From Shigella phage Sf25, in the sequence record MF327009: 64,000 bases of DNA; one strand, written 5' to 3'. The notes under the pieces were generated by a model. The model was not told the DNA's origin, made no database searches, and was given only the letters and a program-made list of their open reading frames with translations. Of the stretch, positions 1,144 to 60,042 are shown one piece after another. A program made the translations under genes and the position numbers. Each line of letters starts with the position of its first letter. Position 1 is the stretch's first letter.

Positions 1144-1590
1144 TTATAGATTAAATCCTTCAAAATCAAGAGTATAGATAGTATATGTTGAATACTTTTT
1201 GTACTCATATCTATCTGCAATTCTAAATACACTTCCAGCTGGTATCATTACTTCTTGTTCATCTGAAACTAATTCCATATTACGATAACGATGACTATCC
1301 GGAAACTTAAAGTTTGGATTGTATTCTTTACAGCGTAGAGCTTTTATAGCATACTCCTGGAAATTGAATACCATAGGAGCTTTGAATTCAAAAATAACTT
1401 GTGTGTTATACTCTAAAATTTCATTTAACCAAGTATGGTCATCTGGTTTATTAGTAATACAATGAATTAAAAGTTCAATTTCAGATAAATTAAACCCTTC
1501 AGAAAGTAATTCTTCACGAATAGAAGCACGCACCGATGCATCCATTGATTTTATTTTAAAATCTTTTAGTTGCATTACTGAGTATTTCAT
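1144..1590 (-). CDS. Mod-family ADP-ribosyltransferase-like protein, possibly N-terminally shortened
   Basis: 148 aa; carries E-Q-E-V (ExE) motif matching the EQEW motif of the upstream paralogue but lacks an obvious upstream Arg/STS region; start overlaps upstream stop (ATGA). Confidence 0.4.
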   Translation of the reverse strand: MKYSVMQLKDFKIKSMDASVRASIREELLSEGFNLSEIELLIHCITNKPDDHTWLNEILEYNTQVIFEFKAPMVFNFQEYAIKALRCKEYNPNFKFPDSHRYRNMELVSDEQEVMIPAGSVFRIADRYEYKKYSTYTIYTLDFEGFNL

Positions 1591-2235: not shown

Positions 2236-2270
2236 TATCATATCATCGTTAGAAAGGAAAGTAAACAACT
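2236..2270 (-). promoter_or_regulatory. T4-type early promoter
   Basis: GTTTAC (plus gtaaac 2261-2266) plus TATGAT-like -10; a second identical copy lies at 2444-2478 because of the tandem duplication. Confidence 0.45.
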
Positions 2271-2653
2271 TTTTGAATTATTTTGCCCAGGGAGCCCAAG
2301 GCGGAGGGTCAAGATGGTATGAAGCTAGTTCTTCTAGAAGAGCATCTGGGGCTTCAATTCCATAATTCTGTAATACTATACGGTACTCTTTCTTATAATC
2401 ACTAGAATCATTCTGGTTATTCGTAGAATGATTATCTTCTAACATTCATATCATCGTTAGAAAGGAAAGTAAACAACTTTTTGAATTATTTTGCCCAGGG
2501 AGCCCAAGGCGGAGGGTCAAGATGGTATGAAGCTAGTTCTTCTAGAAGAGCATCTGGGGCTTCAATTCCATAATTCTGTAATACTATACGGTACTCTTTC
2601 TTATAATCACTAGAATCATTCTGGTTATTCGTAGAATGATTATCTTCTAACAT
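2238..2653. repeat. perfect tandem duplication, 2 x 208 bp
   Basis: 2238-2445 is identical to 2446-2653; the unit contains a small ORF plus an early promoter. Confidence 0.9.
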
Positions 2654-4957: not shown

Positions 4958-5720
4958 TTAATAGCCTCGATCTTGACGAGCGAAGTTTTCAGCATTTTTC
5001 AGATAATAAAGTTTAAAGATTTCCTCAGCTGACATTCCAAGAGCAATGAATTTATTCATGAAAAAGTGAAATTGGTCAATCAGTTCAAATTTAATTTCAA
5101 GCTGATCTTCAGGAGATAAGTCTTGAATTTTCTTGGATTGCATTTCAGAATAACGTTTCTTCCAAGGTTTCCATACAGCAGAAGCTTCTTTTTCACCATT
5201 ACTCATACCACCAAGAGAAGTATATAGCTCGCGAGTTTCATCTGCGATATAATCGTCTTGGTTTCGCAACCAAGCAAGAACTTCTCCTGCAGTTTCAAGT
5301 GAATCAGGATGACGATTTGTTTCTGGTTTATCATTAGCCAAACGAATCTGTAAATGCCGCTGCATGTCAAATTTTCTTGGATTGCATTTCAGAATAACGT
5401 TTCTTCCAAGGTTTCCATACAGCAGAAGCTTCTTTTTCACCATTACTCATACCACCAAGAGAAGTATATAGCTCGCGAGTTTCATCTGCGATATAATCGT
5501 CTTGGTTTCGCAACCAAGCAAGAACTTCTCCTGCAGTTTCAAGTGAATCAGGATGACGATTTGTTTCTGGTTTATCATTAGCCAAACGAATCTGTAAATG
5601 CCGCTGCATGTCAAGCATAACCTGCAATGGGTCAATACTGTGCATAATATACTCAGCATATGCACGATTTGCTTTATCAACACCTTCGATCAAATGAGCA
5701 CATTCATTAAAGTGAGCCAT
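4958..5720 (-). pseudogene. 56: gene 56 dCTPase/dUTPase, frameshifted by an internal 244-bp tandem duplication
   Basis: Both ORF pieces (5367-5735 and 4958-5443) carry the same segment; N-terminus MAHFNECAHLIEGVDKANRAY and C-terminus ...KNAENFARQDRGY match T4 gp56; 244 is not a multiple of 3. Confidence 0.7.
5126..5613. repeat. perfect tandem duplication, 2 x 244 bp, inside gene 56
   Basis: 5126-5369 is identical to 5370-5613. Confidence 0.9.
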
Positions 5721-9527: not shown

Positions 9528-9554
9528 GATAATCTCCTCAGTAGTTTATGTTTA

Positions 9555-10029: not shown

Positions 10030-10044
10030 AACAATCTCCTCATT

Positions 10045-10088: not shown

Positions 10089-11515
10089 TAAAATTTTAAT
10101 TCATTTGCCAAAGCATCTAACTGAGCTCGAGTAGATTCATTTCTTTGATAGCGATTCTGCTCAGCCTGAATCTGTTGTGAACCTGCTACTTCGTTCACTT
10201 CAGTTGGAGTAGAATCTTGTTCAATTTCTACCCATTTCTGATTTCCTTTTTGAACACCCATCAAAAACTTATTCCATTTATTCTTATCGCCATATCGTGA
10301 TTTGATTTGCTTAATGAGTTGTTGTTCAGCAGCTGCTAGCTCCTCGGTTTCAATGACCGCAAGCATAAAATCAGCTGTTGCTGGAAGACCAGCAGATTCT
10401 GCAATATCGCTCATGTTAACATCGGAAGAGTCCCAAGCTTGTTTACCAACCTGCGCTGCGGTCCAAAGAACAGTTTCGGTTTCAACAGCAAGAGCACGCA
10501 ATTCCTCTGCAATAGCTTTAACAGTTGTGTAACTATTTTCTGAATAAACTCTAATGCGGCAAGATTTACAAATACCTAGATAGTCGACAATAATGATTGT
10601 TGGAACAAAATTCTTCTTGAGCTTCAATTCATTCAAGAGAGACCTGAATGTATTAGCGTCTGCTCCACCAGTAGGATATTGCTTAACGATTAAACGACCG
10701 AGAGTAGATTTCTCACGCCATTTTTCCATTTTTCCTTTATATTCGGCGTAAGAAATATGTCCATCATCAATATCGTCAAGAGAAACATCGAGCATGTTAG
10801 CATCAATACGTTTAGCACAGACTTCTTCTGCCATTTCCATGGAGATATAAAGAACGTTATGACCAAGCTGCAAATAATCTGCTGCTAATGAGCAAAGTCC
10901 TAATGATTTACCAACGTTAACGCCAGCCATTAAAACGTTCAGTGTTCCTGTTTCAGCTCCGCCTTTTGTAATTTTATTCAAAATACGAAGTTTAAATGGA
11001 ACCTTACGAGCTTTATTCATATAAGATAGCCAGCGTGCTTCGTAGTCATCCATCCAATCATGACCAACGTAGCTATCAAATGAAATTGATAATGCTTGGC
11101 GCATGATGTCAGGAATAGCACCTACATCTGGCATTTTCTTATTTCGTTTTTCCGGAGGAAGCTCAGCATTAGTTTGAATTTCGATTATTTTAGACGTAGC
11201 ATTAAACATCGCCCTTTGCTGAACATATTTTTCTGTTTCTTTTACTAACCAACTATGGTCTTCCGGAGAATCAGCTAGTTTTGAAATAAGTGTTTTTACA
11301 CCAGAATATTCTGTTTCAGTAAATGAACTATTTTCTAATGCAACATTTAACGCATTAATAGATGGAACGCTATGATACTCATTAACATGAGATTTAATTA
11401 ATTTGAATGTATTTTTAGCTGGACCACTTTCAAAATATTCTGAATCCATATATGGCCAAACTTTTGAAAAATAAGCTTGATCAAATATGAGATGAGAAAG
11501 AATAATTTCTACCAC
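10088..11515 (-). CDS. 41: replicative DNA helicase gp41 (DnaB-like)
   Basis: 475 aa; Walker A GVNVGKS; length matches T4 gp41. Confidence 0.9.
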   Translation of the reverse strand: MVEIILSHLIFDQAYFSKVWPYMDSEYFESGPAKNTFKLIKSHVNEYHSVPSINALNVALENSSFTETEYSGVKTLISKLADSPEDHSWLVKETEKYVQQRAMFNATSKIIEIQTNAELPPEKRNKKMPDVGAIPDIMRQALSISFDSYVGHDWMDDYEARWLSYMNKARKVPFKLRILNKITKGGAETGTLNVLMAGVNVGKSLGLCSLAADYLQLGHNVLYISMEMAEEVCAKRIDANMLDVSLDDIDDGHISYAEYKGKMEKWREKSTLGRLIVKQYPTGGADANTFRSLLNELKLKKNFVPTIIIVDYLGICKSCRIRVYSENSYTTVKAIAEELRALAVETETVLWTAAQVGKQAWDSSDVNMSDIAESAGLPATADFMLAVIETEELAAAEQQLIKQIKSRYGDKNKWNKFLMGVQKGNQKWVEIEQDSTPTEVNEVAGSQQIQAEQNRYQRNESTRAQLDALANELKF

Positions 11516-11524
11516 ACTTACTCC

Positions 11525-11881
11525 TTAAAAGAATTTAAATTTTTTCTTTGACCTTTTATTAAATGCATCTTGCAGTTGCATTGTAATACATTTTTCTACA
11601 TGAGGAGCTAACTCAGCTTTTCTTTCTTGGTCAAGAACAGCAAAGTCCATTACAACCTTTCCATCAACCCAATCCAGTTTAGTTACATACACTATATGTG
11701 TAGAACCATCTTCTAGTTTAATGACAATCTCCTGGATAACATTTTCCATAGCGGATTTAATTATCTTAAGAGACTCATTAAAAAGACGTTCTTTTCTTTC
11801 TTTTTCCCCCTCCGAAGAGGGGGATTCATCGATAATTTCTAAATCTAAATCATCTTTACTCATTAAATTCTTCCATATCAC
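11525..11881 (-). CDS. 40: gp40-like protein
   Basis: 118 aa between uvsX and 41, the syntenic position of T4 gene 40. Confidence 0.5.
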   Translation of the reverse strand: MIWKNLMSKDDLDLEIIDESPSSEGEKERKERLFNESLKIIKSAMENVIQEIVIKLEDGSTHIVYVTKLDWVDGKVVMDFAVLDQERKAELAPHVEKCITMQLQDAFNKRSKKKFKFF

Positions 11882-13037
11882 TTAACTGCTCGAGGTCAGT
11901 TTCTAAATCAGCTGCTGATTTACTTTTACTTTCTGGAGATTTAAATTTTTCAACCTTTGAGTTAATCAATTCATCAACTTCAGCTTCAACAATTTCATTA
12001 CTATCAATAGCACCTAACTGATAAGCACGTTTAATAGCATCTCGGAATGGCTGATGCTTAAATAAAGGACCCCAGAATGTAGTGCAGTTGGTATCTTTTG
12101 CACGCCAAGATTTTTCTTCGCGAATCATCTCACCGGTTTCTTCGTCAAGAAATTCACGAGCATACCAGCCATTTTTAGGTTTTACCACAAATCCTAATTC
12201 AAGAGCCATATCTAACAATCCAGAATAAGGATCGATGCCACCGTCAAATTTAACATCAATAAAGAATTTACTTTTTTCTTTAACGGTACGAGATTTTTCT
12301 ACATTTAGAACAAATTGATACCCCTGAAGATCAGAACCATCTTTAATCTGGCGCTTACCGATAATGAATACAGTATCAGCCGAATACATTACGCCTGTAC
12401 CACCTGTCATCACGGTTTTACTAAACATTTCAATTGTTTCAATTGTATGGTTAACCGCAACACATGGAATATTTTTAATGCTAAAGTAAGGAGTAACAAT
12501 ACGGAATAATGACTTCAGTGATTTAGCACGAGTCATATCTGCCACAGATTTTTCATTCAAGGCATCTTCAGTTTCTTTCTTAGAAGCCATATTACCGATT
12601 GAGTCGATGAATACAATAACTTTTTCACCGCGCTCAATAGCTTCAAGCTGATTCACCATATCAATTTTTAGCTGTTCAACTGACTGAATCGGCGTATGAA
12701 TTACTCGTTCTGGGTCAACCCCCATGGATCGCAAATAAGCTGGAGTAATACCAAATTCGCTATCATAGAATAGACAAACCGCGTCAGGATATTTGTTCAA
12801 ATATGCCGCAACCATAGTCAAAGACATATTTGATTTAAAGTGTTTAGAAGGCCCTGCGAAAATAGTTAAACCAGACTGCATACCGCCATCAATCGCACCA
12901 GAAATAGCAATATTAAGCATTGGAATTTTTGTACGAATTACATCCTTTTCATTAAAGAATTTAGATGTAGTCAGTTCAGCAGTCATTTTAGAAGTGGAAG
13001 CTTTAATCAAACGGGATTTTAAATCTGCAATAGACAT
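11856..13037 (-). CDS. uvsX: RecA-like recombinase UvsX
   Basis: 393 aa; N-terminus MSIADLKSRLIKASTSK...; Walker A GPSKHFKS; acidic C-terminal tail. Confidence 0.9.
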   Translation of the reverse strand: MSIADLKSRLIKASTSKMTAELTTSKFFNEKDVIRTKIPMLNIAISGAIDGGMQSGLTIFAGPSKHFKSNMSLTMVAAYLNKYPDAVCLFYDSEFGITPAYLRSMGVDPERVIHTPIQSVEQLKIDMVNQLEAIERGEKVIVFIDSIGNMASKKETEDALNEKSVADMTRAKSLKSLFRIVTPYFSIKNIPCVAVNHTIETIEMFSKTVMTGGTGVMYSADTVFIIGKRQIKDGSDLQGYQFVLNVEKSRTVKEKSKFFIDVKFDGGIDPYSGLLDMALELGFVVKPKNGWYAREFLDEETGEMIREEKSWRAKDTNCTTFWGPLFKHQPFRDAIKRAYQLGAIDSNEIVEAEVDELINSKVEKFKSPESKSKSAADLETDLEQLSDMEEFNE

Positions 13038-13114
13038 TCATTTTTTCCATAGGCATCATTATATTTTCCTCACTGGTTAAAGATAGAGTAATTATAACAC
13101 AATAAATTTAGGCA

Positions 13115-13963
13115 TTAATCAACTGCTATTGGATGAATAGCATTAAACTTATGAAATGCTTCTGATTTTTCTTTACGTGAAACGCACATGCGAAGAACCT
13201 TTAATGGTTCGTCTTCTTCACCCAACGATTTTCGTTTTTCAATATTAGAAGTTTTCCAACGAGCTTGCTCTGGAAACTCTCTATTGATTTGCTCAAGCGC
13301 TCTATTATGTTTAGAATTACTACGAATTGAACTGCACCCGCCAGGAGCTTGTGCTTTTCCAGATACAACCAGATATTTGAACAAGGCCAAATGCGGATAA
13401 CCTTGATTAATTAAATTGAGAAATGCATACATATCTTCGCACAAATCAATTTTTCCATACCCAATTTGTTCTGTCGTAAGTTTTCCAAGGTCATACCATG
13501 TATTCGTGAATCCATATGAATTTTCACGATAATTACCCCAAGATGAAGTAATTTTAAAAATTGGTAGGCGAGCATGACCATGATAATACCCGCAATCCAT
13601 GGCATCCTCAACGTATTGAATCAATTCATAGAACTGTTCACGGGTTAATTGATTGACTTTATCTACACAACGACGGTCATCTCTTTTTCGCATTGAACTC
13701 ATACGAATAGTAGTATCATCGTCAATCATCCAGATTCGTTGACCTGCATACATATCAGTAATTGCTTTACGAGTACCGGCAATTCCGTTTACATCATCAG
13801 GAATAGTTATAATTTTAGCTCTAGACCCATAAGCGTCATAATAAGCTTTTTCTTCATGTTCACGCACTACAATATGGGGTTCATAATCAGTCGGAAACAT
13901 ATCAAGGGCAGAAACTGCCCCGACACGCTGATAACTTGGAATTACGAATTGAATCATTTCCAC
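13115..13963 (-). CDS. putative DNA glycosyltransferase (GT-A-like) at the beta-gt locus
   Basis: 282 aa with IWMIDDDTTI (DxD-type motif); occupies the position of T4 beta-gt but does not resemble it as recalled. Confidence 0.45.
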   Translation of the reverse strand: MEMIQFVIPSYQRVGAVSALDMFPTDYEPHIVVREHEEKAYYDAYGSRAKIITIPDDVNGIAGTRKAITDMYAGQRIWMIDDDTTIRMSSMRKRDDRRCVDKVNQLTREQFYELIQYVEDAMDCGYYHGHARLPIFKITSSWGNYRENSYGFTNTWYDLGKLTTEQIGYGKIDLCEDMYAFLNLINQGYPHLALFKYLVVSGKAQAPGGCSSIRSNSKHNRALEQINREFPEQARWKTSNIEKRKSLGEEDEPLKVLRMCVSRKEKSEAFHKFNAIHPIAVD

Positions 13964-14808
13964 TCACCGTTATAATCTTTTTTCACAATATGAGTTTCGC
14001 CAGTATTCCACCAATGATCAACCAAGTAAAAATGACGAGAATATACATGAAGACTTCCAACATTCCATATAATAGAACCTGCTTTATACTGACGAGTTGA
14101 ATCGCCGGCATTCAAATCAGATACTAATTTATCTAATACGTATTTTTGCCATGCATAATCATTACGGAATCCGAAGACCACGTCATTTGAGCGCATGCTT
14201 ACTACTGCATTGACTTTCTTATCACGAATCAGGTACTGTACTGTATTAGTACACATGAAATCTGACATACCATCTTTATTGTAGTCAAATTGCATGGATG
14301 GACGAGTCATGCTTACTACTGCATTGACTTTCTTATCACGAATCAGGTACTGTACTGTATTAGTACACATGAAATCTGACATACCATCTTTATTGTAGTC
14401 AAATTGCATGGATGGACGAGTATAAATCATGATACCACGTCGAGAATCAGGATTTTGACCAAGTTCAGCTAAACACATATCATACTGGGCATAGTTATCT
14501 TCTGACCAAATAGCCCAACCATAATTCGAGTTAATTTCGCCTTTAGAAGATGCTACCTGCTGCCAAATCTTTGGTGTTTCGCCTGGAATATCTTTGACAA
14601 ACAGACTTTGAGACTTGTACCATTCAAGTTCACGCTGAATGTATTCATCATTAAGAGCGCCAAAAATAAAGGGTTCATCTGCTACAAATGATGCGCCAAT
14701 AATTTCAATAGTTTTAACACCGGTTTTATCAACTACGAAATCTTTTTCTTTTAATGCAAGCCCCAAATGAAGACGGATTTCTTCAACTGTCATAAAGTCA
14801 CTAATCAT
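13954..14808 (-). CDS. 42: dCMP hydroxymethylase gp42, with in-frame 38-aa internal duplication
   Basis: 284 aa, 38 more than T4 gp42 (246), exactly the duplicated block SMTRPSMQFDYNKDGMSDFMCTNTVQYLIRDKKVNAVV. Confidence 0.85.
   Translation of the reverse strand: MISDFMTVEEIRLHLGLALKEKDFVVDKTGVKTIEIIGASFVADEPFIFGALNDEYIQRELEWYKSQSLFVKDIPGETPKIWQQVASSKGEINSNYGWAIWSEDNYAQYDMCLAELGQNPDSRRGIMIYTRPSMQFDYNKDGMSDFMCTNTVQYLIRDKKVNAVVSMTRPSMQFDYNKDGMSDFMCTNTVQYLIRDKKVNAVVSMRSNDVVFGFRNDYAWQKYVLDKLVSDLNAGDSTRQYKAGSIIWNVGSLHVYSRHFYLVDHWWNTGETHIVKKDYNGEWK
14194..14421. repeat. perfect tandem duplication, 2 x 114 bp, inside gene 42
   Basis: 14194-14307 is identical to 14308-14421; in-frame. Confidence 0.9.
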
Positions 14809-14961
14809 TTAAACCTCAATTGATACATTCATATTTAACTTGTAACAGTAATAAGCTCCAACCTAAAATAATAGTCGGAATCATAAGAGGAACCGTTACA
14901 CTATAGTATATACTTATTATAATCATCAAGATTAAAAGCAACACTGTTATAATTTTGCTTT

Positions 14962-16028: not shown

Positions 16029-18872
16029 TCAGCCAAACAGGAAGTCTAACGAAGCTTTTTCTTCATAGTCCATACCAGCCGATTCACACATGCCTGCAAG
16101 CGGTTTAACAAACGATTTTTGGAACAAAGTTGAGTAGTCAATCCAAGACAGTACGTCAGAACGAATTTCTTTTGGAAGTTCTGTACCCGACGGCCAAGCA
16201 ATGCATTTGTCACCAAATGGATTTCCTTCACGCAATGGAAGAACCATTACTTTATTTCCATCCAAAATTGGAGCTACACCTAAACCGCTAACAGCTCGAC
16301 GATAAGTTAGCACACCACGAATATGGAACGGACATTTAAATCCTGGCCAACCTTTATCATCATATTTCGCTATATCGTTCGCAGTTTTTACTTCAGCAAT
16401 AACTTTATAGTCAAGTTGACGATATTCTTTCTCGAAGTTCTTGTAATATTCTTGGACAGACTCTTCACCTTCCTGAAGAATACGACGAATACTTTCTTCG
16501 AGAGCTTCTTGGACCGCTTTAGGCGTTGAACTCTGCTGAGTTTCCATACCCATGATTTTTAGATGCGGTTCAGCAAATCGCTTATCTTCCATATCATATA
16601 CGTTCAGAGCATAACGCTTTTTCGCTTTCCAAAATCCGCCAACGCCCTTTGAACCAAGTGGAGGGCAAGAAATAGCTTCACGGTCCATATGCATCAGATG
16701 CTCGCGGTTATTCATATAATCACATAACTCACGATATGCAACATCAATCATAGGTTCCATCTTTTTCTTACCGAACTGATTCATGAATTCAACTAAATCG
16801 TTCTGCTCTTTGAATCGGTCAAGACCAACTTTTTCAATAACTTTATCTACACAAACATATACCGAATCAGTATCACCTGCTGCAATGAAATCTTCGCCAT
16901 TAGTTCCGCATACTTTATTCAGATATTCATTAATTTTACGAGCAATCCACTGAATACCAACTTGGCCGAAAATTGTGATAGCAGTAGCATTTCGCAAATC
17001 ATAGTAACGGAAATGAATATTACCAAGAGCACCATAAAGACTGTTAATAAGAATTTTACGGTTCAGCTGATTTGTGTTAGCAAGTGTAGCTGCTTTTTCA
17101 CACTCTTCGATCAAACTATTAAGAACAGATTCGGTGTAATTCGATAGTTCATTTAAGAAATCATCACTGAACTTAACATATCGTTCAACTTCTGGTTTAG
17201 TTGAGCAAGACCCTGCGCCTTTCATAATAATCTTTTTAATAGCTTCGGCATTCATTTCTTCAGCGAACATTTTCTTTTTCCAATCTTTACGCTGGAAAAA
17301 TACTTTAGCGATTTCCTTTGGAATGATACCTTCTTGATGCTTATCATACATCCATCCATTCGGAGAACAAGAATATTCATCACTCGGTTTAGGAGCTGTT
17401 CCTGCGATATATTCATGAATTGGATGAACTTTAAACTGACCACGAATAGTCTCAGGACTAATGTTAACCTGACGAATAATGCTCGGATACAGAGACGTCA
17501 AGTCAAAACTCATAATATATCGACGAGCAATTGGTTTAGGTTCAAACACAAATGCACCCGGAAAACTCTGTTTAACGTGCGAACCTTGTTGAGGAATAAC
17601 CTTATGTTCACCTTTCAATGAGTTAAAAATAATAGCATCCCAAGTTTTAATAGGACTCATTACACCGGAAAAAGGCATTTTAGCGTAATAAGACATACTT
17701 AAAACTAGATCGATAAACCCGCGAATTTTATCAATTGCTTGAACTGATTCTACGTCAATGATGTTATAACTAATGTATCGTTGATGATTAGTCTCACGAA
17801 GTTTATTAATAGGACCGTCGTATGGTAATTTACCTTTTTTGGTTTCATGTTGAGCAACTGATTCCAAAGAGAATGACGGCAAATTAGTAAAAGCGAATTT
17901 CTTGTACAAATCTAAATAATCAAGAATAGATACGCCATCAATAGAATAAATTTCTTTGCTGCCGTACATATTTTGAATTAGTTTGGATTTTACCCGACCG
18001 ATTGGAGAGAAACGTTTCATACTGCGTTCGCCTAGAATCATTTTAACACGATTCATGATATATGGAACGTCAAACCCCTCAATATTCCAACCGGTAAAAA
18101 TAGCAGGTCGTTTCTGTTCCCAGAGATTGATATATTCCATGAGCATATCACGCTCATTATCGAATGGCATATAAATTACTCGGTCAAGAATTTCTTGAGG
18201 AACTTCATCACCACCTTCACAGTCAAGCTTAGCAGCTAACTTTGCATCCCATTTTGATACTGAACCGTACATTGAATTCAAAAGGTCGAAAACATAAAAA
18301 CGATCGTCAATTGAATCGTAATGAGTGATAGCATCAATTTCATATTCAGCTTTCATTGGGTCAGGAAATTTATCACCAGTAACCTCAATGTCACAGTTAG
18401 CTACACGAACACCGTACATTGAATTCAAAAGGTCGAAAACATAAAAACGATCGTCAATTGAATCGTAATGAGTGATAGCATCAATTTCATATTCAGCTTT
18501 CATTGGGTCAGGAAATTTATCACCAGTAACCTCAATGTCACAGTTAGCTACACGAACAAATTTTCGGTCATAAACAATTTCTGAACCATATGTATCACTG
18601 ATATAAGCGAGTTTAAAATCGTTCATACCGAGAGCTTCGAGACCGATGTCTTCCATTCGCTTCATCCAATCTCGAGCATCTTTCATTGATGGAAATTTTT
18701 GAGGAGCGCAGTTTTTACCATAGATGTCTTTGTACTTTGACTCTTCCTTACAATGCCTAAACATAGTTGGAAGATATTCTACTTCACGAGTACGTTCCTT
18801 TCCATTTTCATCAATATAACGTTCAACAATATTATTTCCGACTGTTTCAATAGAGATATAAAATTCTTTCAT
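16029..18872 (-). CDS. 43: DNA polymerase gp43 (family B), with in-frame 49-aa internal duplication
   Basis: 947 aa, 49 more than T4 gp43 (898), exactly the duplicated block VRVANCDIEVTGDKFPDPMKAEYEIDAITHYDSIDDRFYVFDLLNSMYG; exonuclease and polymerase motifs present. Confidence 0.9.
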   Translation of the reverse strand: MKEFYISIETVGNNIVERYIDENGKERTREVEYLPTMFRHCKEESKYKDIYGKNCAPQKFPSMKDARDWMKRMEDIGLEALGMNDFKLAYISDTYGSEIVYDRKFVRVANCDIEVTGDKFPDPMKAEYEIDAITHYDSIDDRFYVFDLLNSMYGVRVANCDIEVTGDKFPDPMKAEYEIDAITHYDSIDDRFYVFDLLNSMYGSVSKWDAKLAAKLDCEGGDEVPQEILDRVIYMPFDNERDMLMEYINLWEQKRPAIFTGWNIEGFDVPYIMNRVKMILGERSMKRFSPIGRVKSKLIQNMYGSKEIYSIDGVSILDYLDLYKKFAFTNLPSFSLESVAQHETKKGKLPYDGPINKLRETNHQRYISYNIIDVESVQAIDKIRGFIDLVLSMSYYAKMPFSGVMSPIKTWDAIIFNSLKGEHKVIPQQGSHVKQSFPGAFVFEPKPIARRYIMSFDLTSLYPSIIRQVNISPETIRGQFKVHPIHEYIAGTAPKPSDEYSCSPNGWMYDKHQEGIIPKEIAKVFFQRKDWKKKMFAEEMNAEAIKKIIMKGAGSCSTKPEVERYVKFSDDFLNELSNYTESVLNSLIEECEKAATLANTNQLNRKILINSLYGALGNIHFRYYDLRNATAITIFGQVGIQWIARKINEYLNKVCGTNGEDFIAAGDTDSVYVCVDKVIEKVGLDRFKEQNDLVEFMNQFGKKKMEPMIDVAYRELCDYMNNREHLMHMDREAISCPPLGSKGVGGFWKAKKRYALNVYDMEDKRFAEPHLKIMGMETQQSSTPKAVQEALEESIRRILQEGEESVQEYYKNFEKEYRQLDYKVIAEVKTANDIAKYDDKGWPGFKCPFHIRGVLTYRRAVSGLGVAPILDGNKVMVLPLREGNPFGDKCIAWPSGTELPKEIRSDVLSWIDYSTLFQKSFVKPLAGMCESAGMDYEEKASLDFLFG
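18264..18557. repeat. perfect tandem duplication, 2 x 147 bp, inside gene 43
   Basis: 18264-18410 is identical to 18411-18557; in-frame. Confidence 0.9.
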
Positions 18873-19605: not shown

Positions 19606-19989
19606 TCAAAAAATCATATCTTCGACCAGTTTTGCCCATTTACCATATCTTTTACCACGAGGAACTGCAGCCATCAGATAATTAAAATGAGCTTCATCAC
19701 TTAAGCCTGATCCAATTAAATTCATAGCATATACAGCTGGCATGCACTCTGGAAATTGTGATAATGCATTTTCAACCATGAATTTTGAATAATCTTTTTG
19801 AGCAATAGAGCATTTAGTTTTATTATTAATAGCTCCAATTATTTCAAAAAATTCATTTTCAGCTTTTTCTTTAAAAGAATCAGCAGCAGATTGGACAGCT
19901 GTCCAATCTTTTGAATACCAAGCAACTTGATGCTCGTTTAATTGAATATCATCTTCAAATAAGCTCATATCACTTCCACTGCATTTCAC
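19606..19989 (-). pseudogene. 62: clamp-loader subunit gp62, truncated (apparent internal out-of-frame deletion)
   Basis: 127 aa versus 187 in T4; ends ...[11 protein letters not shown]; the short stretch before regA encodes, out of frame, KEVTKNVKEQKQLKKLALEW* which resembles the T4 gp62 C-terminus as recalled. Confidence 0.55.
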
Positions 19990-20929
19990 ATGCTAATTGA
20001 ATGAAAAGATAAGCTAAATGTAATTCAGTGTTAGCTGCAATACCATGATACTGATTATTTTCACCAACAATTTCGTACATACGAATAATACTTTGCGGAG
20101 TTACACGTGAATAGATTTCTTCGGCAAGTTTACCCACGAACCACGAATAATCAGCTGCATATTTTGGTGCTAAAGCTCTGAGTTGTTTAACATCTTTATT
20201 TTTGAGAGACTCAAGAACATCATCAATAGCACCACGATCGTTAGTAACCAGTGATAAAATACCAGCATCCAAAACACCTTTAGATGAATAACTATCGAGC
20301 TCACCAATAGTTTTACGAAAATCAGGAAAATTCTTTTTAACCAAAGCTGCTACAACTTTCATATCAGCTATAGCAATTCCTTCATGCTTGCAGATTTCAG
20401 TCAATCGACGAATCATCTGCTTCATCATTTCAATTTTATCTTCATCGGTCGGTTGACCGAATGTAATAACTCGGCAGCGTGACTGGAGAGGTTTAATAAT
20501 ACCATCAATATTGTTAGCAGTAATAATAATACTACAGTTTGAACTATAAGCTTCCATAAAGGAACGAAGATGTCGCTGAGACTCTGCTAACCCTGAGCGG
20601 TCAAATTCATCAATAACGATTACTTTTTGACGACCATCAAATGAAGCGGCGCTGGCAAAATTAGTCAAAGGACCACGAACGAAATCAATTTTACAATCTG
20701 ACCCATTCACAAACATCATATCAGCATTTACATCATGACACAATGCTTTCGCTACAGTTGTTTTACCTGTTCCTGGAGAAGGAGAATGAAGAATAATATG
20801 TGGAATTTTACCTTTACTTGTAATAGATTTAAAGGTTTCTTTATCAAAGGCGGGAAGAATACATTCATCGATAGTAGATGGACGATATTTCTGTTCAAGA
20901 ATGTGTTCTTTTTCATTTACGGTAATCAT
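19970..20929 (-). CDS. 44: clamp-loader ATPase gp44
   Basis: Walker A GTGKTT, SRC motif; start taken at MITVNEKEH (319 aa as in T4). Confidence 0.9.
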
Positions 20930-20963
20930 AATTTCCTCATACAAGTTTTAGTGTAAATTATAA

Positions 20964-20977
20964 AGGGCCGAAGCCCT
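20964..20977 (-). other. intercistronic RNA stem-loop (UUCG tetraloop) between 45 and 44
   Basis: agggc-cgaa-gccct on plus strand. Confidence 0.4.
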
Positions 20978-20980
20978 CTA

Positions 20981-21667
20981 TTAAAAATCGTGGGTAGAAT
21001 CAGCTTCAAGAGCTACTACATAATTCGCATGTTCACCTTCAAATTTAGCAGCGCCTTGTTTACCTTTTGCCCAAAGCAGAAGTTTATAATTTCCTGGTTG
21101 CATTTTCATATTTGCCATATTGATAATGAAATTAAATGTATTTTCACCATCATAATCACCAAGAGTCAAAGAATATTTAACACGGGTAAGAGCAGAATCT
21201 TCTACTTTATTAAAACCGTTAATTACGATTTTACCTTCTTTTACCGTGATAGCAATTGTATCAATTTGCAGACCACGAGATACACGCAACAGCTGTTGAA
21301 GGTCTTCAGCTTTAATTTCAGTAACAACAGATGCTACCGGGAATGGAATTGGTTTATTAGGAGCAACTACTGTACTCGGATCGGCTGCTGGCCAAAAAAT
21401 TGTTGAACGAGCATCAGCAATTTTAATATTTCCATCTTCTGACTGGGAAATTTCTGCATCATCATTAACTAGAGACAGAATACCGAGAAAACCGTTCAAA
21501 TCGTAAATTGCTACATCAAAATCAATAACGTCAGAAATATTTGCTTCCGCATAAGTTGTACCATTAACTGCGCGAGTCATAATAAATTGACCGGATTTAA
21601 GCATAATACCGGAGTTAATAGTAGCGAAATTTTTAAGCAGAGCAGTAGTATCTTTAGACAGTTTCAT
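20981..21667 (-). CDS. 45: sliding clamp gp45
   Basis: 228 aa, same length as T4 gp45; position. Confidence 0.9.
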   Translation of the reverse strand: MKLSKDTTALLKNFATINSGIMLKSGQFIMTRAVNGTTYAEANISDVIDFDVAIYDLNGFLGILSLVNDDAEISQSEDGNIKIADARSTIFWPAADPSTVVAPNKPIPFPVASVVTEIKAEDLQQLLRVSRGLQIDTIAITVKEGKIVINGFNKVEDSALTRVKYSLTLGDYDGENTFNFIINMANMKMQPGNYKLLLWAKGKQGAAKFEGEHANYVVALEADSTHDF

Positions 21668-21722
21668 GTAATTTCCTTCAATTCAAATGAGATTTAATTT
21701 TATAACTAATTTAATAAAGCAA

Positions 21723-22112
21723 TTAACGATTAAAATCAGCCGCAATTGTTTCAGCAACAATTTGAGCAGCAACAATTAGGCGTTCATCTGCATTACCGCA
21801 ATATTCATCTTCTAAACGTTCACCGCATGAAGTCATAATAAATTTAGCACCGGCGTTTAGGGATTCTGCAGTATGTTTGCGCATTAGTTCAATCCATTTA
21901 TTACTTACTTCACGATCGATAGCTTCATAATACGCATGACGAGCAGGTGCAGATTTAATTTTGTTCTGAATAACTTCCATTGCGTTATCAGAAAGAGACA
22001 AAACCCATGCGCGACGAATTTTATTTTGGTTTTGCGGATTTGAGTCAGAACGCACGTGTTTTGGCTGAATATCTTTTACATCAACAGTATAATTCACAGT
22101 AATTTTAGTCAT
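21723..22112 (-). CDS. rpbA: RNA-polymerase-binding protein RpbA
   Basis: 129 aa, same length as T4 RpbA, between 46 and 45. Confidence 0.6.
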
Positions 22113-22121
22113 AATACACCT

Positions 22122-22310
22122 TTAGTCATAATAATCAGTAACAGTCCAAGCTTCATTTCTATTGGACATTATTTTTGTATATTCTGCTTTAAATGCATTC
22201 CTAAGCATAGATTCAGTAACTATATGCTCTTCATTAGAAAAATTATTTCTCAGAATATATCGTTTTATTTCAGGAAAAGTTAATAGATGCTGTCCAGTTG
22301 AATATTCCAT
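22122..22310 (-). CDS. hypothetical protein (62 aa)
   Basis: Minus-strand ORF; a 10-bp inverted repeat lies upstream at 22321-22365. Confidence 0.4.
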   Translation of the reverse strand: MEYSTGQHLLTFPEIKRYILRNNFSNEEHIVTESMLRNAFKAEYTKIMSNRNEAWTVTDYYD

Positions 22311-22365
22311 GTTTTTCCTCCATAGAGATTATACTCTAATAAATTAAAGCATAATCTCTTATAAA

Positions 22366-24048
22366 TTAAACCATTACAGTAAATCGACCAACTTTCTTCA
22401 TTTGAAGATGCTGACCATATTCTTGCGGGTCATGGTCTTTATGCGAAATTATAAAAACATTAGTGTTTTTCATTGAATTTATAATATTAGCTACACCTTT
22501 AATACCTTCGGCATCAAATGACCCATCAAACACTTCATCGAGTATTAACGTACTAATACTAACACCAGATACAATAGAAGCAATATCACGCCAAGTAAAT
22601 AAAAGAGCAATATCAATTCGTGCTTTTTCACCTTCACTAAATGAAGCATAACTAAAATCTTCACGACCACGGGATTTAATTGTCTCATTAAATTCTTCAT
22701 CTAATGTAAACACATAATCCGCTTCCATTATTTTAAGATAATGGTTAATCTGCTTATTAAATAATGGAACGTACTTTTTAATAATAGCACCTTTAATACC
22801 AGAATCTTTGAGCATATCAGTCAAAATTCCTCGGTGGTATTTTTCCATTACTAAATTAGTTTTTGTCTTAACAATTTTATCAAGTTCTTCTTGAAGCAGT
22901 GCTATTTCATCAGCATGGTCAATAAACTCAGAAGATGCTTTTTCTATAGCTGCTTTAACTTTTTTAGCTTTATCTACCGTCGTGATTAGAGATTGCTTTT
23001 TATTGCGAATATCATTTGCCAACGACTGCTGAGTTTTAATATTATCTCGGTATTCATCAACAAGAACTTTTAAATTATCACGGTGTGTTGAAAGCTGTTC
23101 AAACGAATGCGTACATTCAGAAACTTTATCTTTAATTTTAGAAACAACTTTATCACCGGAACTTAATTGTGACAAACAGGTTGGACATAATCCACCTTCG
23201 TGATACATATTAATGACTTTATTATACGAGTCAATTTTTGATTTAATTAAAACTGCTTCTTGACCGATTTTATTAAATGCATCAGTCGGGTCTTCATCCA
23301 AAACAATATTAACTAATCTTTCGTTAGCTTCTTCTATTTCCGATTTTAGCGTTCTAGCTTCTTTTGCCAAATCATCATACATATTTTGTAGACGTGTAAG
23401 GTTGTCACCCGTTAATTTTTTCTGGCGTTCAACGTTATCATTATATATTTTAATTTGTTGGATAATACTATCTTTTTTAACATCAAGCACTTGGTTCTGC
23501 GAATTTAATTCACGTATTAGTGCTTTATTAAGCTTATCCATTTCAGCTAATGTTCCTACCTCAAGCAGGTCTTCCACAAGCTTTCTTCGCGCAGGGGTCG
23601 ACAAACCCATGAAAGGGGTATACCCTGCTGTACCAAGGACAACAATCTGCTTGAAACTGGCATATGACATTCCGATAAGCTGTTCAAATTCTGCTTGGAA
23701 ATCTTTACTGCTGGCAGATTCATTAAGACGTGTACCGTTAACGGTGATTTCGAAAACGTTTGGTTTTTGTCCTCTTTTGATATAGTACTTTTTCTCATCA
23801 TATTCCATCCACAGTTCAACTAAAAGTTCTTTCTTATTTGTGCTGTTTATTAATTGACCTTTCTTTACATCACGAAATGGCTTGCCAAAAAGCCCAAATG
23901 TGATGGCTTCTAACATAGTAGACTTACCACCGCCATTTCGGCCAGTAATAAGAGTTTTTTGAACCTTATCTAATTGAATGTCAATAGGATTTCCACCTAC
24001 TGACATTATATTTTGATACCTAACTCGGTTTAGTTTAAAATTCTTCAC
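22366..24048 (-). CDS. 46: recombination nuclease subunit gp46 (Rad50/SbcC-like ATPase)
   Basis: 560 aa; Walker A GRNGGGKST, central coiled coil with CPTC hook, signature and Walker B LILDEVFDG. Confidence 0.9.
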   Translation of the reverse strand: MKNFKLNRVRYQNIMSVGGNPIDIQLDKVQKTLITGRNGGGKSTMLEAITFGLFGKPFRDVKKGQLINSTNKKELLVELWMEYDEKKYYIKRGQKPNVFEITVNGTRLNESASSKDFQAEFEQLIGMSYASFKQIVVLGTAGYTPFMGLSTPARRKLVEDLLEVGTLAEMDKLNKALIRELNSQNQVLDVKKDSIIQQIKIYNDNVERQKKLTGDNLTRLQNMYDDLAKEARTLKSEIEEANERLVNIVLDEDPTDAFNKIGQEAVLIKSKIDSYNKVINMYHEGGLCPTCLSQLSSGDKVVSKIKDKVSECTHSFEQLSTHRDNLKVLVDEYRDNIKTQQSLANDIRNKKQSLITTVDKAKKVKAAIEKASSEFIDHADEIALLQEELDKIVKTKTNLVMEKYHRGILTDMLKDSGIKGAIIKKYVPLFNKQINHYLKIMEADYVFTLDEEFNETIKSRGREDFSYASFSEGEKARIDIALLFTWRDIASIVSGVSISTLILDEVFDGSFDAEGIKGVANIINSMKNTNVFIISHKDHDPQEYGQHLQMKKVGRFTVMV

Positions 24049-24308
24049 AAAAGATTCCTTTTAATGTATCTTTTAGACCATTCTATCATATCATCATAAT
24101 CTAAAAAGTATTCATCAAATTCAGCCATGCAAACAACACCTTGTACTGTTTTTGATGTAATATAAATTATTCCAACATATCTGGAATCTTCTTCGGTGTA
24201 ATCAATATTTGCTACGAATTCATCGTTAATGTCAAATGTCGAAAACTTCACAGTATGCATCCTTAATACAAGATACAGCCATATCTCGTAATGATTTAGG
24301 TGTGTCAT
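24045..24308 (-). CDS. hypothetical protein (87 aa)
   Basis: Minus-strand ORF between 47 and 46. Confidence 0.4.
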   Translation of the reverse strand: MTHLNHYEIWLYLVLRMHTVKFSTFDINDEFVANIDYTEEDSRYVGIIYITSKTVQGVVCMAEFDEYFLDYDDMIEWSKRYIKRNLL

Positions 24309-37059: not shown

Positions 37060-38361
37060 TTACTTAATTAACTGTAAAGCTTGTTCAAGACGATCAAGAC
37101 GATTAACGGATTCTTCCCAAATCTTTTTAGCACTTTCATATTCTTTTTCTGCTTTATTTTTAATTTCTAAAGCTTCTTTATAAGCTTTTTCTAGTGCAAT
37201 AACTTCTGGACGAATTTCTATTGGCTCAGGAGAATCATCGAGCCAATCCATCAATTCTTCAAGTGTGGTTTCTTCTTTAGGAGCATTCACAATTTCTTCA
37301 CATTTCTTCTGATGAATTTCTTTATCTGTTAGTGAATAAGCACATTTCACTTCACGAAGACTAATTACAATTTTATATCCTTCCCATCCGCATATATTCT
37401 TAAAAGGATATGTATGAATATTTTCTACTGTTTCCATACAAAGTAATGCAGTCTCTAACTGACGAGTTATAGTGCTAGCAATTGAGAAAAATTTATTAAT
37501 ATTCTTTTGGTTAGCGTTTGGTGTAAAAAATCCATAATTCACAAAAATAGCTACTTTATTTTCATCAAGCTCATATTCTAGTGAATAAGCACATTTCACT
37601 TCACGAAGACTAATTACAATTTTATATCCTTCCCATCCGCATATATTCTTAAAAGGATATGTATGAATATTTTCTACTGTTTCCATACAAAGTAATGCAG
37701 TCTCTAACTGACGAGTTATAGTGCTAGCAATTGAGAAAAATTTATTAATATTCTTTTGGTTAGCGTTTGGTGTAAAAAATCCATAATTCACAAAAATAGC
37801 TACTTTATTTTCATCAAGCTCATATTCTTTTACGATAATCATATCAGAAGCCAAAGGATGAATTTGACGATAATCGCCATAACATAATTTAGAAGCTGAT
37901 TTTAGAATTTGTCCTTTGAAAAGTCTGAAATTACTAATCCAACGACGAGTAAAAATATTCTCAGGGTCTTCTTTATTATTAAGATGATAAGAATTAACAT
38001 CACCGAACCAATTATATCCTACTACATCTTTGGTTCGTTTAATTTCTTTCCCAAAATTACCAAGAATATCCCGATTAACCAAATATGAAAGAAGACGAGA
38101 CTCTTTAAAGGTTTTCTTGATATTATCTTTATCTACACGGCTAGAAATTTTACGAATTTCATGAATAAATTTAGTAGAAGAAACAATACTTGCATCAACA
38201 CTATTGAGCCATTGATTGATAATGGAAAGAACGATATTTTGACCAAACATCGGTATAGCTTTATCATCAATAACGCTATTGAATGATTTGATATATTCGT
38301 TACGAGTCATATTAATCTCCTCAGTAGAAAGTAAGAACATTATACCACATCCTTGTGGCAA
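37060..38361 (-). CDS. hypothetical protein with C-terminal coiled coil and in-frame 83-aa internal duplication
   Basis: 433 aa as given; block YELDENKVAIFVNYGFF...REVKCAYSL occurs twice; likely real start MTRNEYIKSF. Confidence 0.45.
   Translation of the reverse strand: MPQGCGIMFLLSTEEINMTRNEYIKSFNSVIDDKAIPMFGQNIVLSIINQWLNSVDASIVSSTKFIHEIRKISSRVDKDNIKKTFKESRLLSYLVNRDILGNFGKEIKRTKDVVGYNWFGDVNSYHLNNKEDPENIFTRRWISNFRLFKGQILKSASKLCYGDYRQIHPLASDMIIVKEYELDENKVAIFVNYGFFTPNANQKNINKFFSIASTITRQLETALLCMETVENIHTYPFKNICGWEGYKIVISLREVKCAYSLEYELDENKVAIFVNYGFFTPNANQKNINKFFSIASTITRQLETALLCMETVENIHTYPFKNICGWEGYKIVISLREVKCAYSLTDKEIHQKKCEEIVNAPKEETTLEELMDWLDDSPEPIEIRPEVIALEKAYKEALEIKNKAEKEYESAKKIWEESVNRLDRLEQALQLIK
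37331..37828. repeat. perfect tandem duplication, 2 x 249 bp
   Basis: 37331-37579 is identical to 37580-37828; in-frame. Confidence 0.9.
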
Positions 38362-38367: not shown

Positions 38368-39642
38368 CTAGTTCAGTGCATTTAGTGCATTGTTCAGTTT
38401 AGAACGTTGCTTCGTGAGATTTTTGACTTTTTCTTGTGCTTTTTCTAGCATCTTTTCAGCTTCTAACACTTCATTGGTCGCTTTAACGAGTTCATCATCT
38501 ACTGCCTTAAGGGACTTCTCAATCGCATCCGCGTGCCATTTTTCAACAGGTTTAAGACTCGGATTTTCAATAGGAAGAAAATTCACTTTATTGAATTTCC
38601 ATGCATCTTTATTACCTGAACTATACATCCAAAATTTAGGATCGTTTGATGAGTAATTGGATAAATTTAAATTTAAGTTATCTTGCACTTCTTGCTTTTT
38701 CTCTTGCGTGACTTCGTCCTTTCTCAAAAAATCGTATTTAAATGAAACGATCATATCAAGTTCATATGTTGTTGTGTCTAATTTAAATCGTTCGAAATGC
38801 TGTGAAATCTTAGACTGAATAGGAAGAAAATTCACTTTATTGAATTTCCATGCATCTTTATTACCTGAACTATACATCCAAAATTTAGGATCGTTTGATG
38901 AGTAATTGGATAAATTTAAATTTAAGTTATCTTGCACTTCTTGCTTTTTCTCTTGCGTGACTTCGTCCTTTCTCAAAAAATCGTATTTAAATGAAACGAT
39001 CATATCAAGTTCATATGTTGTTGTGTCTAATTTAAATCGTTCGAAATGCTGTGAAATCTTAGACTGAACAGCAGCAACAACATCCATATACTTAAATGCT
39101 TCTGTCAACTGTGATTTAAGACATTCGCAAATTGAAAGAGAATTTTTTGTATTAGGTTTAAAGCTAATTCGTGCAGTTCTATTATTTTCTTTTAATGGTC
39201 TTACTTCCATCTGAAGAGTATAACCATCAAATTTCAGGTTCTTTAAGTTAATATCAGAACCTTTTAATCGACTCGCAGTTGATAAAATTTGCTTTAATTG
39301 TCTACGGAATAGAGCAATAAATCTCCATTCAATACGATAATGATTTGGATTGAAAAATCCAGATGATAAATCGACCTTACTTTGACCAACGCCTTGAACA
39401 AATAGAGGATTTTTATAATCAATAGTTTTACAGAAATCGGTTAGCTGCTCACGAGCAGTCATTTGTGTAATATACCCCGCTTTACTAAAATGACGTAACC
39501 ATTCACTGCTATTCATATATTTAAAGTGAATATCACGATTAACTTTATCAGGGTCTAAATTATTTTGGCACAAAAATGTCATAACATCACGAGTATAGCT
39601 GGCATTACGAATCATATCTTCAATTTGAGAACGAGTTTTCAT
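38368..39642 (-). CDS. hypothetical protein with C-terminal coiled coil and in-frame 83-aa internal duplication
   Basis: 424 aa as given; block ...SKISQHFERFKLDTTTYELDMIVSFKYDF...KVNFLP occurs twice. Confidence 0.45.
   Translation of the reverse strand: MKTRSQIEDMIRNASYTRDVMTFLCQNNLDPDKVNRDIHFKYMNSSEWLRHFSKAGYITQMTAREQLTDFCKTIDYKNPLFVQGVGQSKVDLSSGFFNPNHYRIEWRFIALFRRQLKQILSTASRLKGSDINLKNLKFDGYTLQMEVRPLKENNRTARISFKPNTKNSLSICECLKSQLTEAFKYMDVVAAVQSKISQHFERFKLDTTTYELDMIVSFKYDFLRKDEVTQEKKQEVQDNLNLNLSNYSSNDPKFWMYSSGNKDAWKFNKVNFLPIQSKISQHFERFKLDTTTYELDMIVSFKYDFLRKDEVTQEKKQEVQDNLNLNLSNYSSNDPKFWMYSSGNKDAWKFNKVNFLPIENPSLKPVEKWHADAIEKSLKAVDDELVKATNEVLEAEKMLEKAQEKVKNLTKQRSKLNNALNALN
38569..39066. repeat. 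perfect tandem duplication, 2 x 249 bp
   Basis: 38569-38817 is identical to 38818-39066; in-frame. Confidence 0.9.
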
Positions 39643-39650: not shown

Positions 39651-40808
39651 TTAAGATTTAAGTAAATCAACAATTTTAATTAACTTTTCACGCTCGGATT
39701 TAGCTTTACTACTCAGTCCAGATAGTCTGAAAATTTCATCATCATATTGTTGAATAGAAATATTCAGCTCTTCAATCTGTTTATTAAAATAATCAATTTG
39801 TTCAGAATGTTTTTCGTTACTACGAACTGGTACAGGTTTTGTAGGCAATTTAGTTGAACTGGATTCATCCGGGCGATAAATTAAAATACAACTTGAACCA
39901 ATAGGGCATTTTGCACCAGATGAATATTCTAATGTTCCAGCTTCTTTTAAAACTTCAAAAGCTAAACAGAGATGATGCCCCATATTAACATAATCTGTAG
40001 AGTGAGCTCTGATCAGCTCTTCAATCTGTTTATTAAAATAATCAATTTGTTCAGAATGTTTTTCGTTACTACGAACTGGTACAGGTTTTGTAGGCAATTT
40101 AGTTGAACTGGATTCATCCGGGCGATAAATTAAAATACAACTTGAACCAATAGGGCATTTTGCACCAGATGAATATTCTAATGTTCCAGCTTCTTTTAAA
40201 ACTTCAAAAGCTAAACAGAGATGATGCCCCATATTAACATAATCTGTAGAGTGAGCTCTGATGTAATAATCATCTCCACGAATACTAAATTTAAAGCATT
40301 TAAGGTCTTCTGTATTATTGGTCTTAAAAATCATTTGTTTATCTAGACCTTTAGCTAATCGAGCGCCTAATGCTAATAATCGTCGTTGATTTTCCCACAA
40401 ATCCGCAATCATTTGATCGAATGATAATTTCGGCATTAGTCGACCATAAAGGTCATATCCTTTATTATAATTGCGAAGGATTTCACTCGCATTAATACGA
40501 GACAACGCTCCAATTTTATTAAGGGCTTTCATGATGCGATTAGATAAACCCATTCCAGACCCGTTTGTTCGTTGTAAATGTTTATCTAATCCAAACCCAA
40601 TATCAACTTTAAATTTATCTAAAATTTCAGCATGAACATCTCTGTCAATAACATTCAAATCCAAAGTTTGGTTAAATCTATGAAAAAATTTATCTGGCTC
40701 TCCACGACGAAGTACAGTCCATTCATTCAATTTTTTATTAACTAAAGATTTAATTACTGCATTGACATTATTAATTACTACTGACATATTTTCCTCACTC
40801 AATTTCAA
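39651..40808 (-). CDS. hypothetical protein with C-terminal coiled coil and in-frame 83-aa internal duplication
   Basis: 385 aa as given; block RAHSTDYVNMGHHLCLAFEVLKEAGT...NKQIEEL occurs twice. Confidence 0.45.
   Translation of the reverse strand: MKLSEENMSVVINNVNAVIKSLVNKKLNEWTVLRRGEPDKFFHRFNQTLDLNVIDRDVHAEILDKFKVDIGFGLDKHLQRTNGSGMGLSNRIMKALNKIGALSRINASEILRNYNKGYDLYGRLMPKLSFDQMIADLWENQRRLLALGARLAKGLDKQMIFKTNNTEDLKCFKFSIRGDDYYIRAHSTDYVNMGHHLCLAFEVLKEAGTLEYSSGAKCPIGSSCILIYRPDESSSTKLPTKPVPVRSNEKHSEQIDYFNKQIEELIRAHSTDYVNMGHHLCLAFEVLKEAGTLEYSSGAKCPIGSSCILIYRPDESSSTKLPTKPVPVRSNEKHSEQIDYFNKQIEELNISIQQYDDEIFRLSGLSSKAKSEREKLIKIVDLLKS
39765..40262. repeat. perfect tandem duplication, 2 x 249 bp
   Basis: 39765-40013 is identical to 40014-40262; in-frame. 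Confidence 0.9.
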
Positions 40809-46803: not shown

Positions 46804-47127
46804 TTATCCGATAGTTGTATAGTACCACAGAATGCTGTTAGATTGGTCTAGTATGTGATCAATCATTTTAATTGTGTCGGTAGGAAGTTTACTGGCATCT
46901 GGAATTGAAGGCGTGTATTTTCTACCAGAATACCCCAAATATTGCTCACCAAATTTATCAATCAAATCTGGCAACTCGGAGAAAATAAAATCGTATGCTT
47001 TGTGTCTAGCATAACTTTTAGTTTCAAAATGCGCAGAATGAAAATAAGCTTGTGCAGCCATTAATAAACCTAAGTATTCATCTGCCTTTGAAGGTTTTCC
47101 ACTTTGTGAAAAGTCGCTGAATTTCAT
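46804..47127 (-). CDS. hypothetical protein (107 aa)
   Basis: Minus-strand ORF downstream of rI; stop-start overlap. Confidence 0.4.
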
Positions 47128-58694: not shown

Positions 58695-58916
58695 TTGCGG
58701 CAACCTTGTCGGGGTTCCACCTGCTAAGGCAAGTGTTTGTACGAAACGCCGGGATTCGAACCCGGTTATCAAGCAGTTGACGCTACTCAATATTTTTAAA
58801 AGGCCATATCTCGACCATATCCGAACGTTCCGTCAAAAACGCTACTCGGCTTACGGCAAAGATATTTCCTCGAATCGATAATTCGGTGCGCCGTTTCTGC
58901 TGTGCGACCCGGTTTC
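58695..58916 (-). ncRNA. possible small stable RNA with tRNA-like T-arm (cf. T4 species 1/2 RNAs)
   Basis: Non-coding stretch distal to the tRNA cluster containing GGTTCGAATCC (T-loop-like) with flanking stem, but no full cloverleaf. Confidence 0.3.
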
Positions 58917-59956: not shown

Positions 59957-60042
59957 TGGTGCGAGAAGTGGGACTCGAACCCACAAGGAAATCATTCCGC
60001 AGCATTTTAAGTGCTGTGCCAACTTGGCTAATTCCCAATTAT
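59957..60042 (-). pseudogene. chimeric tRNA remnant: 3' two-thirds of tRNA-Leu(UAA) fused to a 5' segment that looks like the start of tRNA-Gln
   Basis: Intact Leu anticodon arm (CUUAAAA), long variable arm, T-arm and acceptor 3' strand TTCTCGC-A-CCA, but the 5' side reads TTGGGAATTAGCCAAGTTGGCA, which cannot pair with the acceptor 3' strand and resembles a tRNA-Gln 5' end. Confidence 0.5.

Follow-up and report, generated by a model that had tools for sequence, protein, structure and literature searches.

The stretch of DNA analysed here, hereafter the window, comprises 64 kb of the record of Shigella phage Sf25 (MF327009, an accession given in PMC6563131). Its gene 43, encoding the DNA polymerase gp43, harbors a segment of 147 bp that is present in two head-to-tail copies of 100% identity. 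The features of this locus are listed below; only the gene itself is assigned a strand.

16029..18872, minus strand: gene 43 in its deposited form, coding for a family B DNA polymerase of 947 aa according to the open reading frame (ORF) list and its translation, with a very probably artefactual 49-codon repeat inside
18264..18410, unstranded: copy 1 of the 147-bp unit, whose minus-strand coding gives residues 155-203 of the 947-aa ORF, that is, the second copy in the protein (TRF and exact-extent script)
18411..18557, unstranded: copy 2 of the 147-bp unit, which codes for residues 106-154, equal to T4 V106-G154 (TRF, exact-extent script and chain alignment)
18410/18411, unstranded: novel junction of the repeat, reading ...GTTAGCTACACGAAC directly followed by ACCGTACATTGAATT...

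At this position TRF reports a single array (18264-18558; period 147, 2.0 copies, 100% matches, 0 indels), and a base-by-base comparison, in which w[i]=w[i+147] holds for i=18264..18411, resolves it into the units 18264-18410 and 18411-18557. Homology at the junction amounts to 1 nt beyond the two 147-bp units, which is chance level. As such, the perfect in-frame tandem duplication of 147 bp at 18264-18557 that the initial annotation had described in gene 43 is borne out by TRF, direct comparison and the ORF alike. Alignment of the 947-aa protein with solved chains of T4 gp43 (9e5y, 898 aa) places residues 1-154 on 1-154 and residues 156-947 on 107-898, in agreement with the earlier description of 947 versus 898 aa, with 49 residues added in the N-terminal/exonuclease region. 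The same alignment supplies the mapping onto solved T4 gp43 that had been proposed as a check: on the 9e5y chain, the repeated 49-residue peptide corresponds to V106-G154 and includes D112 and E114, which we take to be the catalytic residues of Exo I. Pfam detects DNA_pol_B_exo1 and DNA_pol_B above their cut-offs in the 947-aa ORF, and copy 2 by itself still yields a full match to the exonuclease domain. A weak match of gp43 to Retrotrans_gag (E=2.5e-4) lies below the cut-off and was dismissed as chance.

When TRF was run on the whole window, eight perfect tandem duplications of exactly 2.0 copies were found, including that of gene 43, with periods of 208, 244, 114, 147, 177, 249, 249 and 249 bp. 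The other seven, none of which is assigned a strand, are as follows.

2238..2653: 2 x 208-bp perfect duplication in the modB/modA.2 region (TRF and exact-extent script)
5126..5614: 2 x 244-bp perfect duplication in gene 56 (dCTPase); the length is not a multiple of 3, and two out-of-frame ORFs result
14194..14421: 2 x 114-bp perfect duplication in gene 42 (dCMP hydroxymethylase), adding 38 aa
31301..31654: 2 x 177-bp perfect duplication over the 3' end of nrdD and the 5' end of nrdG
37330..37828: 2 x 249-bp perfect duplication in nrdC.4 (416 aa vs a normal 333)
38569..39068: 2 x 249-bp perfect duplication in nrdC.5 (424 aa vs a normal 341)
39764..40262: 2 x 249-bp perfect duplication in nrdC.6 (378 aa vs a normal 295)

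The duplications thus range from 114 to 249 bp and have six different lengths, three of them being exactly 249 bp and none longer. All 40-mers that are repeated anywhere in the window belong to these eight duplications, which places the gene 43 repeat far beyond chance. Microhomology at the junctions is at chance level throughout (0-2 nt across all eight), and each of the eight duplicated units is single-copy in T4. In gene 56, the 244-bp duplication splits the coding sequence into one piece in frame -3, which covers T4 residues 1-116, and another in frame -1, which covers residues 36-171.

If the repeats had been introduced downstream of the deposited record, for example by corruption of the data or manipulation of the window, they would be missing from GenBank. 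We found no point in support of this explanation, and the annotation of the Sf25 record itself refutes it. The exact 947-aa protein is annotated there as 'DNA polymerase [Shigella phage Sf25]' (AUV63457.1), and so are the duplicated forms of gp42 (AUV63453.1), NrdC.4 (AUV63498.1) and NrdC.6 (AUV63500.1), as well as the two pieces of gp56, which carry separate annotations (AUV63439.1 and AUV63438.1). A downstream origin can therefore be considered practically nil, and the duplications have to be explained as part of the deposited sequence. It should be noted that within the 90% cluster of AUV63457.1, all other full-length members listed are 898 aa in length.

Furthermore, the window has lost sequence. 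Comparing the collapsed window, in which each of the eight repeats had been reduced to a single unit (leaving 62,363 bp), revealed at least five clean losses of 80-156 bp relative to T4 and/or Sf24, a sibling phage from the same submission batch, with flanking sequence that is 98-100% identical. These losses, again without a strand, are listed here.

1417..1418: 156 bp of modA (T4 12182-12337) absent that T4 and Sf24 both have
19617..19618: 139 bp of gene 62 (clamp-loader subunit) absent (T4 30416-30554), leaving gp62 residues 1-117 and 165-187 in different frames
46830..46831: approximately 145 bp absent relative to T4 (58763-58908) and Sf24
58903..58904: 84 bp absent, the surrounding sequence being 100% identical to Sf24
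60018..60019: 80 bp absent, joining tRNA-Leu to tRNA-Gln

The window carries 9 tRNAs, versus 10 in Sf24. Together with the eight duplications, the losses bring the number of join lesions in 64 kb to at least 13. The initial annotation had treated the gene 43 repeat as a single event, a treatment that does not hold, as it is but one of these. PMC2993671 lists genes 43 and 44/62 in its Core Genome table of T4-like viruses. A viable phage carrying all these lesions together is not credible.

Deleting one copy of each repeat restores the genes concerned: after the collapse, all affected genes are colinear with T4. The collapsed gp43 is 898 aa in length and 99.78% identical to T4 gp43 with 0 gaps, and exact-sequence look-up identifies it as a natural allele present on 64 contigs, among them ECML-134. 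For gp56, residues 1-171 come to lie in a single frame, giving exactly the Sf24 protein, which is present on 55 contigs. The collapsed gp42 aligns to T4 with no gaps, and NrdC.4, NrdC.5 and NrdC.6 are restored and likewise colinear. Compared with T4 gp43 (UniProt DPOL_BPT4; 9e5y, 1noy; RB69 homologue 1ih7/1ig9), the collapsed Sf25 protein is alike in length, domains and, as mentioned, sequence, whereas the protein as deposited has a second copy of V106-G154 that no other inspected record shows. Most likely, the actual Sf25 phage encodes an ordinary 898-aa gp43.

Taken together, the recurrence of these repeats, their length ceiling, the sister lesions that break genes, the absence of the repeats elsewhere (see below) and the restoration of genes upon collapse lead us to conclude that the 147-bp duplication in gene 43 is not a real feature, but an artefact of assembly joining in MF327009, namely an overlap between contigs that was left unmerged. 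We place the probability of this at roughly 95%. The initial annotation had left the choice between a very recent event and an artefact; with at least 13 lesions in 64 kb, the artefact is strongly supported, and the recent biological event is not. Under the artefact, separately assembled contigs would have been set in order, probably against a reference, and then joined end to end. Where neighbouring contigs overlapped, the overlap would have been written twice, resulting in a perfect two-copy tandem repeat, and where they failed to meet, the bases between them would have been left out and the ends abutted. The gene 43 repeat would then represent the overlap of a contig ending at 18410 with a contig starting at 18264/18411, copy 1 probably being the end of the one contig and copy 2 the start of the next; the joining may have been performed by a particular piece of software or by hand. 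Three duplications of exactly 249 bp, with none longer, point to a technical limit rather than to independent biological events, and the simplest form that this limit could take is 250-nt reads minus 1. Sf25 shares many characteristics with join artefacts in draft or 'complete' phage records: perfect identity, two copies, no homology at the junctions and many instances, and also a length ceiling, joins of the gap type and broken genes, with neither relatives nor independent data showing the repeats. We see no material difference between the two.

An artefact of a related kind could have arisen from circularisation alone. When contigs are circularised, an overlap between their ends commonly leaves phage assemblies with perfect repeats, terminal or tandem, and if the contig of a circularly permuted genome had ended within gene 43 with an overlap of 147 bp, and had been rotated without trimming, the outcome would look exactly like the gene 43 repeat. 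One contig, however, has only one pair of ends, and this explanation would have to account for eight duplications of six lengths in addition to joins of the gap type. Based on the eight duplications and five gaps, we reject circularisation as the sole cause and consider it highly improbable, noting that it would still be an artefact and leave the practical verdict the same.

What, then, speaks for a repeat that exists in the phage itself? T4-type phages form tandem duplications, and engineered tandem-repeat insertions exist in T4 lysozyme that have the same outward form, being head to tail and in frame. In the living phage, illegitimate recombination or replication slippage could very recently have produced a genuine tandem duplication that keeps the frame. 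The polymerase would then be expected to have residues 106-154, and Exo I with them, twice over; one copy would presumably be looped out, and proofreading would possibly be changed. The ORF indeed stays open and in frame, copy 2 alone gives a full Pfam exonuclease match, and a genuine duplication in a T-even phage would look just so, with a structural segment repeated head to tail and in frame. The microhomology at the gene 43 junction is 1 nt, at chance level; genuine events need not show the microhomology that is typical of slippage or illegitimate recombination. Yet genuine T-even duplications have independent sizes and no read-length cap, and they do not come together with a dozen other perfect joins and losses by which core genes are broken. 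In Sf25, seven further repeats share the style of that in gene 43, under a ceiling of 249 bp, accompanied by at least five clean losses, and some of these lesions damage required genes.

Furthermore, the insert would double a sequence with the catalytic D112/E114 in a protein under extreme constraint. The collapsed 898-aa gp43 is encoded unchanged, at 898/898 residues, by 10 independent genomes, even though these differ from the window at 33-66 nt, all differences being synonymous and without gaps. With ten lineages showing zero amino-acid variation in gp43, an insert of 49 residues repeating the Exo I-containing segment would probably not be tolerated.

Neither do the relatives of Sf25, or independent data, provide a sighting of the repeat. 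TRF gives 0 rows for the syntenic 50 kb of Sf24, and in 68 kb of T4 it detects just two weak arrays of 22-24 bp. When a 901-bp query over the repeat was run against phage records, 556 of which matched, all 40 matches listed aligned over 754 bp in two pieces, as expected for a single copy; a 100-bp query centred on the gene 43 junction likewise aligned as two separate pieces in all 15 phage-record matches listed. Over the searches of phage records (556, 492 and 501 matching), none of the matches listed contained the extra copy or the junction. A 41-mer across the gene 43 junction gave 0 matches in IMG/VR, JGI metagenome contigs and the contigs of GTDB with one genome per species. As such, neither the phage-record matches listed nor these three collections gave an independent sighting of the duplication. 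Exact look-ups found the 947-aa gp43 on one contig alone, which is the Sf25 record of 168,573 bp, and the same record is the sole contig with the duplicated gp42 (284 aa), NrdC.4 (416 aa), NrdC.6 (378 aa) and the gp56 fragments. For gene 42, there is a direct contradiction of the sister repeat by a contig derived from independent reads: SRR28382194_9017 (L005), the sole Logan contig with the collapsed gp42 allele, matches the gene 42 locus in its collapsed form at 991/991 positions and contains the 114-bp unit once. DNA identical to the locus of this sister lesion, at the gene 42 site, therefore occurs in independent data as a single copy. A Tevenvirinae pan-genome study had already left Sf25 out on account of reading-frame shifts in a number of its genes (PMC8056088).

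In view of the above, we consider it very improbable that a genuine duplication arose in a living phage, and equally so that Sf25, or a subpopulation within its lysate, actually carries the 147-bp repeat. The effect on polymerase and proofreading, which the initial annotation had raised as a question, finds no support as a subject, since the repeat is an artefact in all probability and some of its sister lesions would break genes that the phage needs.

We must however take into account several observations that run counter to an artefact. The duplication of gene 43 is in frame and leaves the ORF open, as would have to be so for a real duplication within an essential gene, and as would be the case in about 1 in 3 instances by chance. 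Among the five lengths below the ceiling, three are multiples of 3 (P ~0.21 by chance, according to our own calculation), and 249 is a multiple of 3 as well. These counterpoints, including the one on gene 56 described next, do not outweigh the systematic pattern of lesions. T4 lacking gene 56 needs further mutations, in both denB and alc, to form plaques (PMC1635256). As such, the frameshift in gene 56 would be lethal only in a denB+ alc+ background. Both denB and alc lie outside the 64-kb window.

If the repeat were real after all, Sf25 would be a viable T4-like phage with a 947-aa polymerase carrying tandem copies of the Exo I-containing V106-G154, and would offer a natural test of how plastic the proofreading domain is, possibly with a mutator allele. 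As a join artefact, which is how we read it, the gene 43 repeat would have no biological significance, and its value would lie in quality control of the public record. Stitched-in duplications and missing segments would accordingly be present in MF327009 and in its protein entries in NCBI nr and UniProt, the affected proteins including the 947-aa 'DNA polymerase', a 284-aa dCMP hydroxymethylase, a split dCTPase and elongated versions of NrdC.4-6. Such errors could mislead comparative genomics, core-genome calls, alignments of protein families and the automated search for 'novel' insertions. Screening for them is easy: such a record shows several tandem repeats that are perfect, two-copy and capped at one length, together with clean short losses.

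Finally, the lesions can be set against the similarity between Sf25 and its sibling. Identity to Sf24 changes stepwise between the 13 lesions (96.4%, 99.8%, 97.1%, 90.5%, 99.7%, 97.5% and so on, up to 99.95%), the segments as a whole spanning 90.5%-99.95%. A permutation test on the difference in means did not find a significant association between lesions and identity steps (P=0.13). A Mann-Whitney test did place the lesions preferentially at identity steps, compared with random positions (p=0.010), and with 500-bp flanks, steps of at least 3.4% occur at 8 of the 13 lesions versus 14.8% of random positions (binomial P 1.4e-4), a threshold that was picked post hoc, after the data had been seen. 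The position of lesions at identity steps fits contigs that were assembled separately, and we regard it as supportive only. As a speculation, the assembly graph might have broken at mosaic boundaries, possibly due to a mixed lysate or a chimeric assembly.

Besides the repeat in gene 43, the window carries seven further tandem duplications, all of which are perfect and consist of exactly two copies.

Tandem duplications (window coordinates)
2238-2653: 208-bp duplication, modB/modA.2
5126-5614: 244-bp duplication, gene 56, with a frameshift
14194-14421: 114-bp duplication, gene 42
31301-31654: 177-bp duplication, nrdD/nrdG
37330-37828: 249-bp duplication, nrdC.4
38569-39068: 249-bp duplication, nrdC.5
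39764-40262: 249-bp duplication, nrdC.6

All seven duplicated units are present only once in T4 and in the sibling phage Sf24, and among the duplicated proteins that were looked up, the Sf25 record is the sole source. For gene 42, an independent contig of 1,010 bp (Logan SRR28382194_9017) matches the region with one repeat copy removed (window 13806-14910) at 991/991 positions. This 100% identity implies that the same or a near-identical phage is present in SRA run SRR28382194.

The window also shows five clean losses relative to T4 and/or Sf24, with flanking sequence that is 98-100% identical.

Clean losses (window coordinates)
1417/1418: 156 bp
19617/19618: 139 bp, clamp-loader gene 62 frameshifted
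46830/46831: about 145 bp
58903/58904: 84 bp
about 60018/60019: 80 bp, tRNA-Leu and tRNA-Gln fused

Identity to Sf24 changes in steps along the window, reaching 99.7-100% at 58657-64000, 5126-14307 and 19618-31477, and just 90-97% in the segments adjoining these stretches. The steps tend to fall at the join lesions, that is, at the duplications and losses read as assembly artefacts. A mixed lysate or a chimeric assembly could account for this, as could natural mosaicism at whose boundaries the assembly broke. The stretch of about 520 bp at 58134-58656 has nothing corresponding to it in Sf24, and Sf24 positions 162604-162639 (about 36 bp) match on either side of it. It may have arisen as a natural insertion accompanied by a short direct repeat, or may reflect a further join problem.

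With its repeat collapsed, Sf25 gp43 is identical at 898/898 residues to that of ten independent genomes (gene 43 at 3001-5697 in each). Their genes each differ from the window's gene 43 by 33-66 nucleotides, and every substitution is synonymous, a pattern that points to very strong purifying selection on gp43. In gp43 as encoded at 16029-18872, a weak Pfam Retrotrans_gag match at residues 782-824 has an E-value of 2.5e-4; its 21.6 bits fall short of the 24.1-bit cut-off, and it was regarded as chance.

Several homing-endonuclease and intron loci of T4 are apparently missing, namely segF, mobB, mobC and the nrdD intron with I-TevII, and the segA/beta-gt region also differs from T4. Differences of this kind belong to the content that usually varies between T4-like phages.

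Sites of T4-variable loci
Window: about 4912-4958, about 26900, about 31400-31480 and about 32700
Collapsed sequence: 4704-4750, 26168-26193, 30687 and 31963-31966
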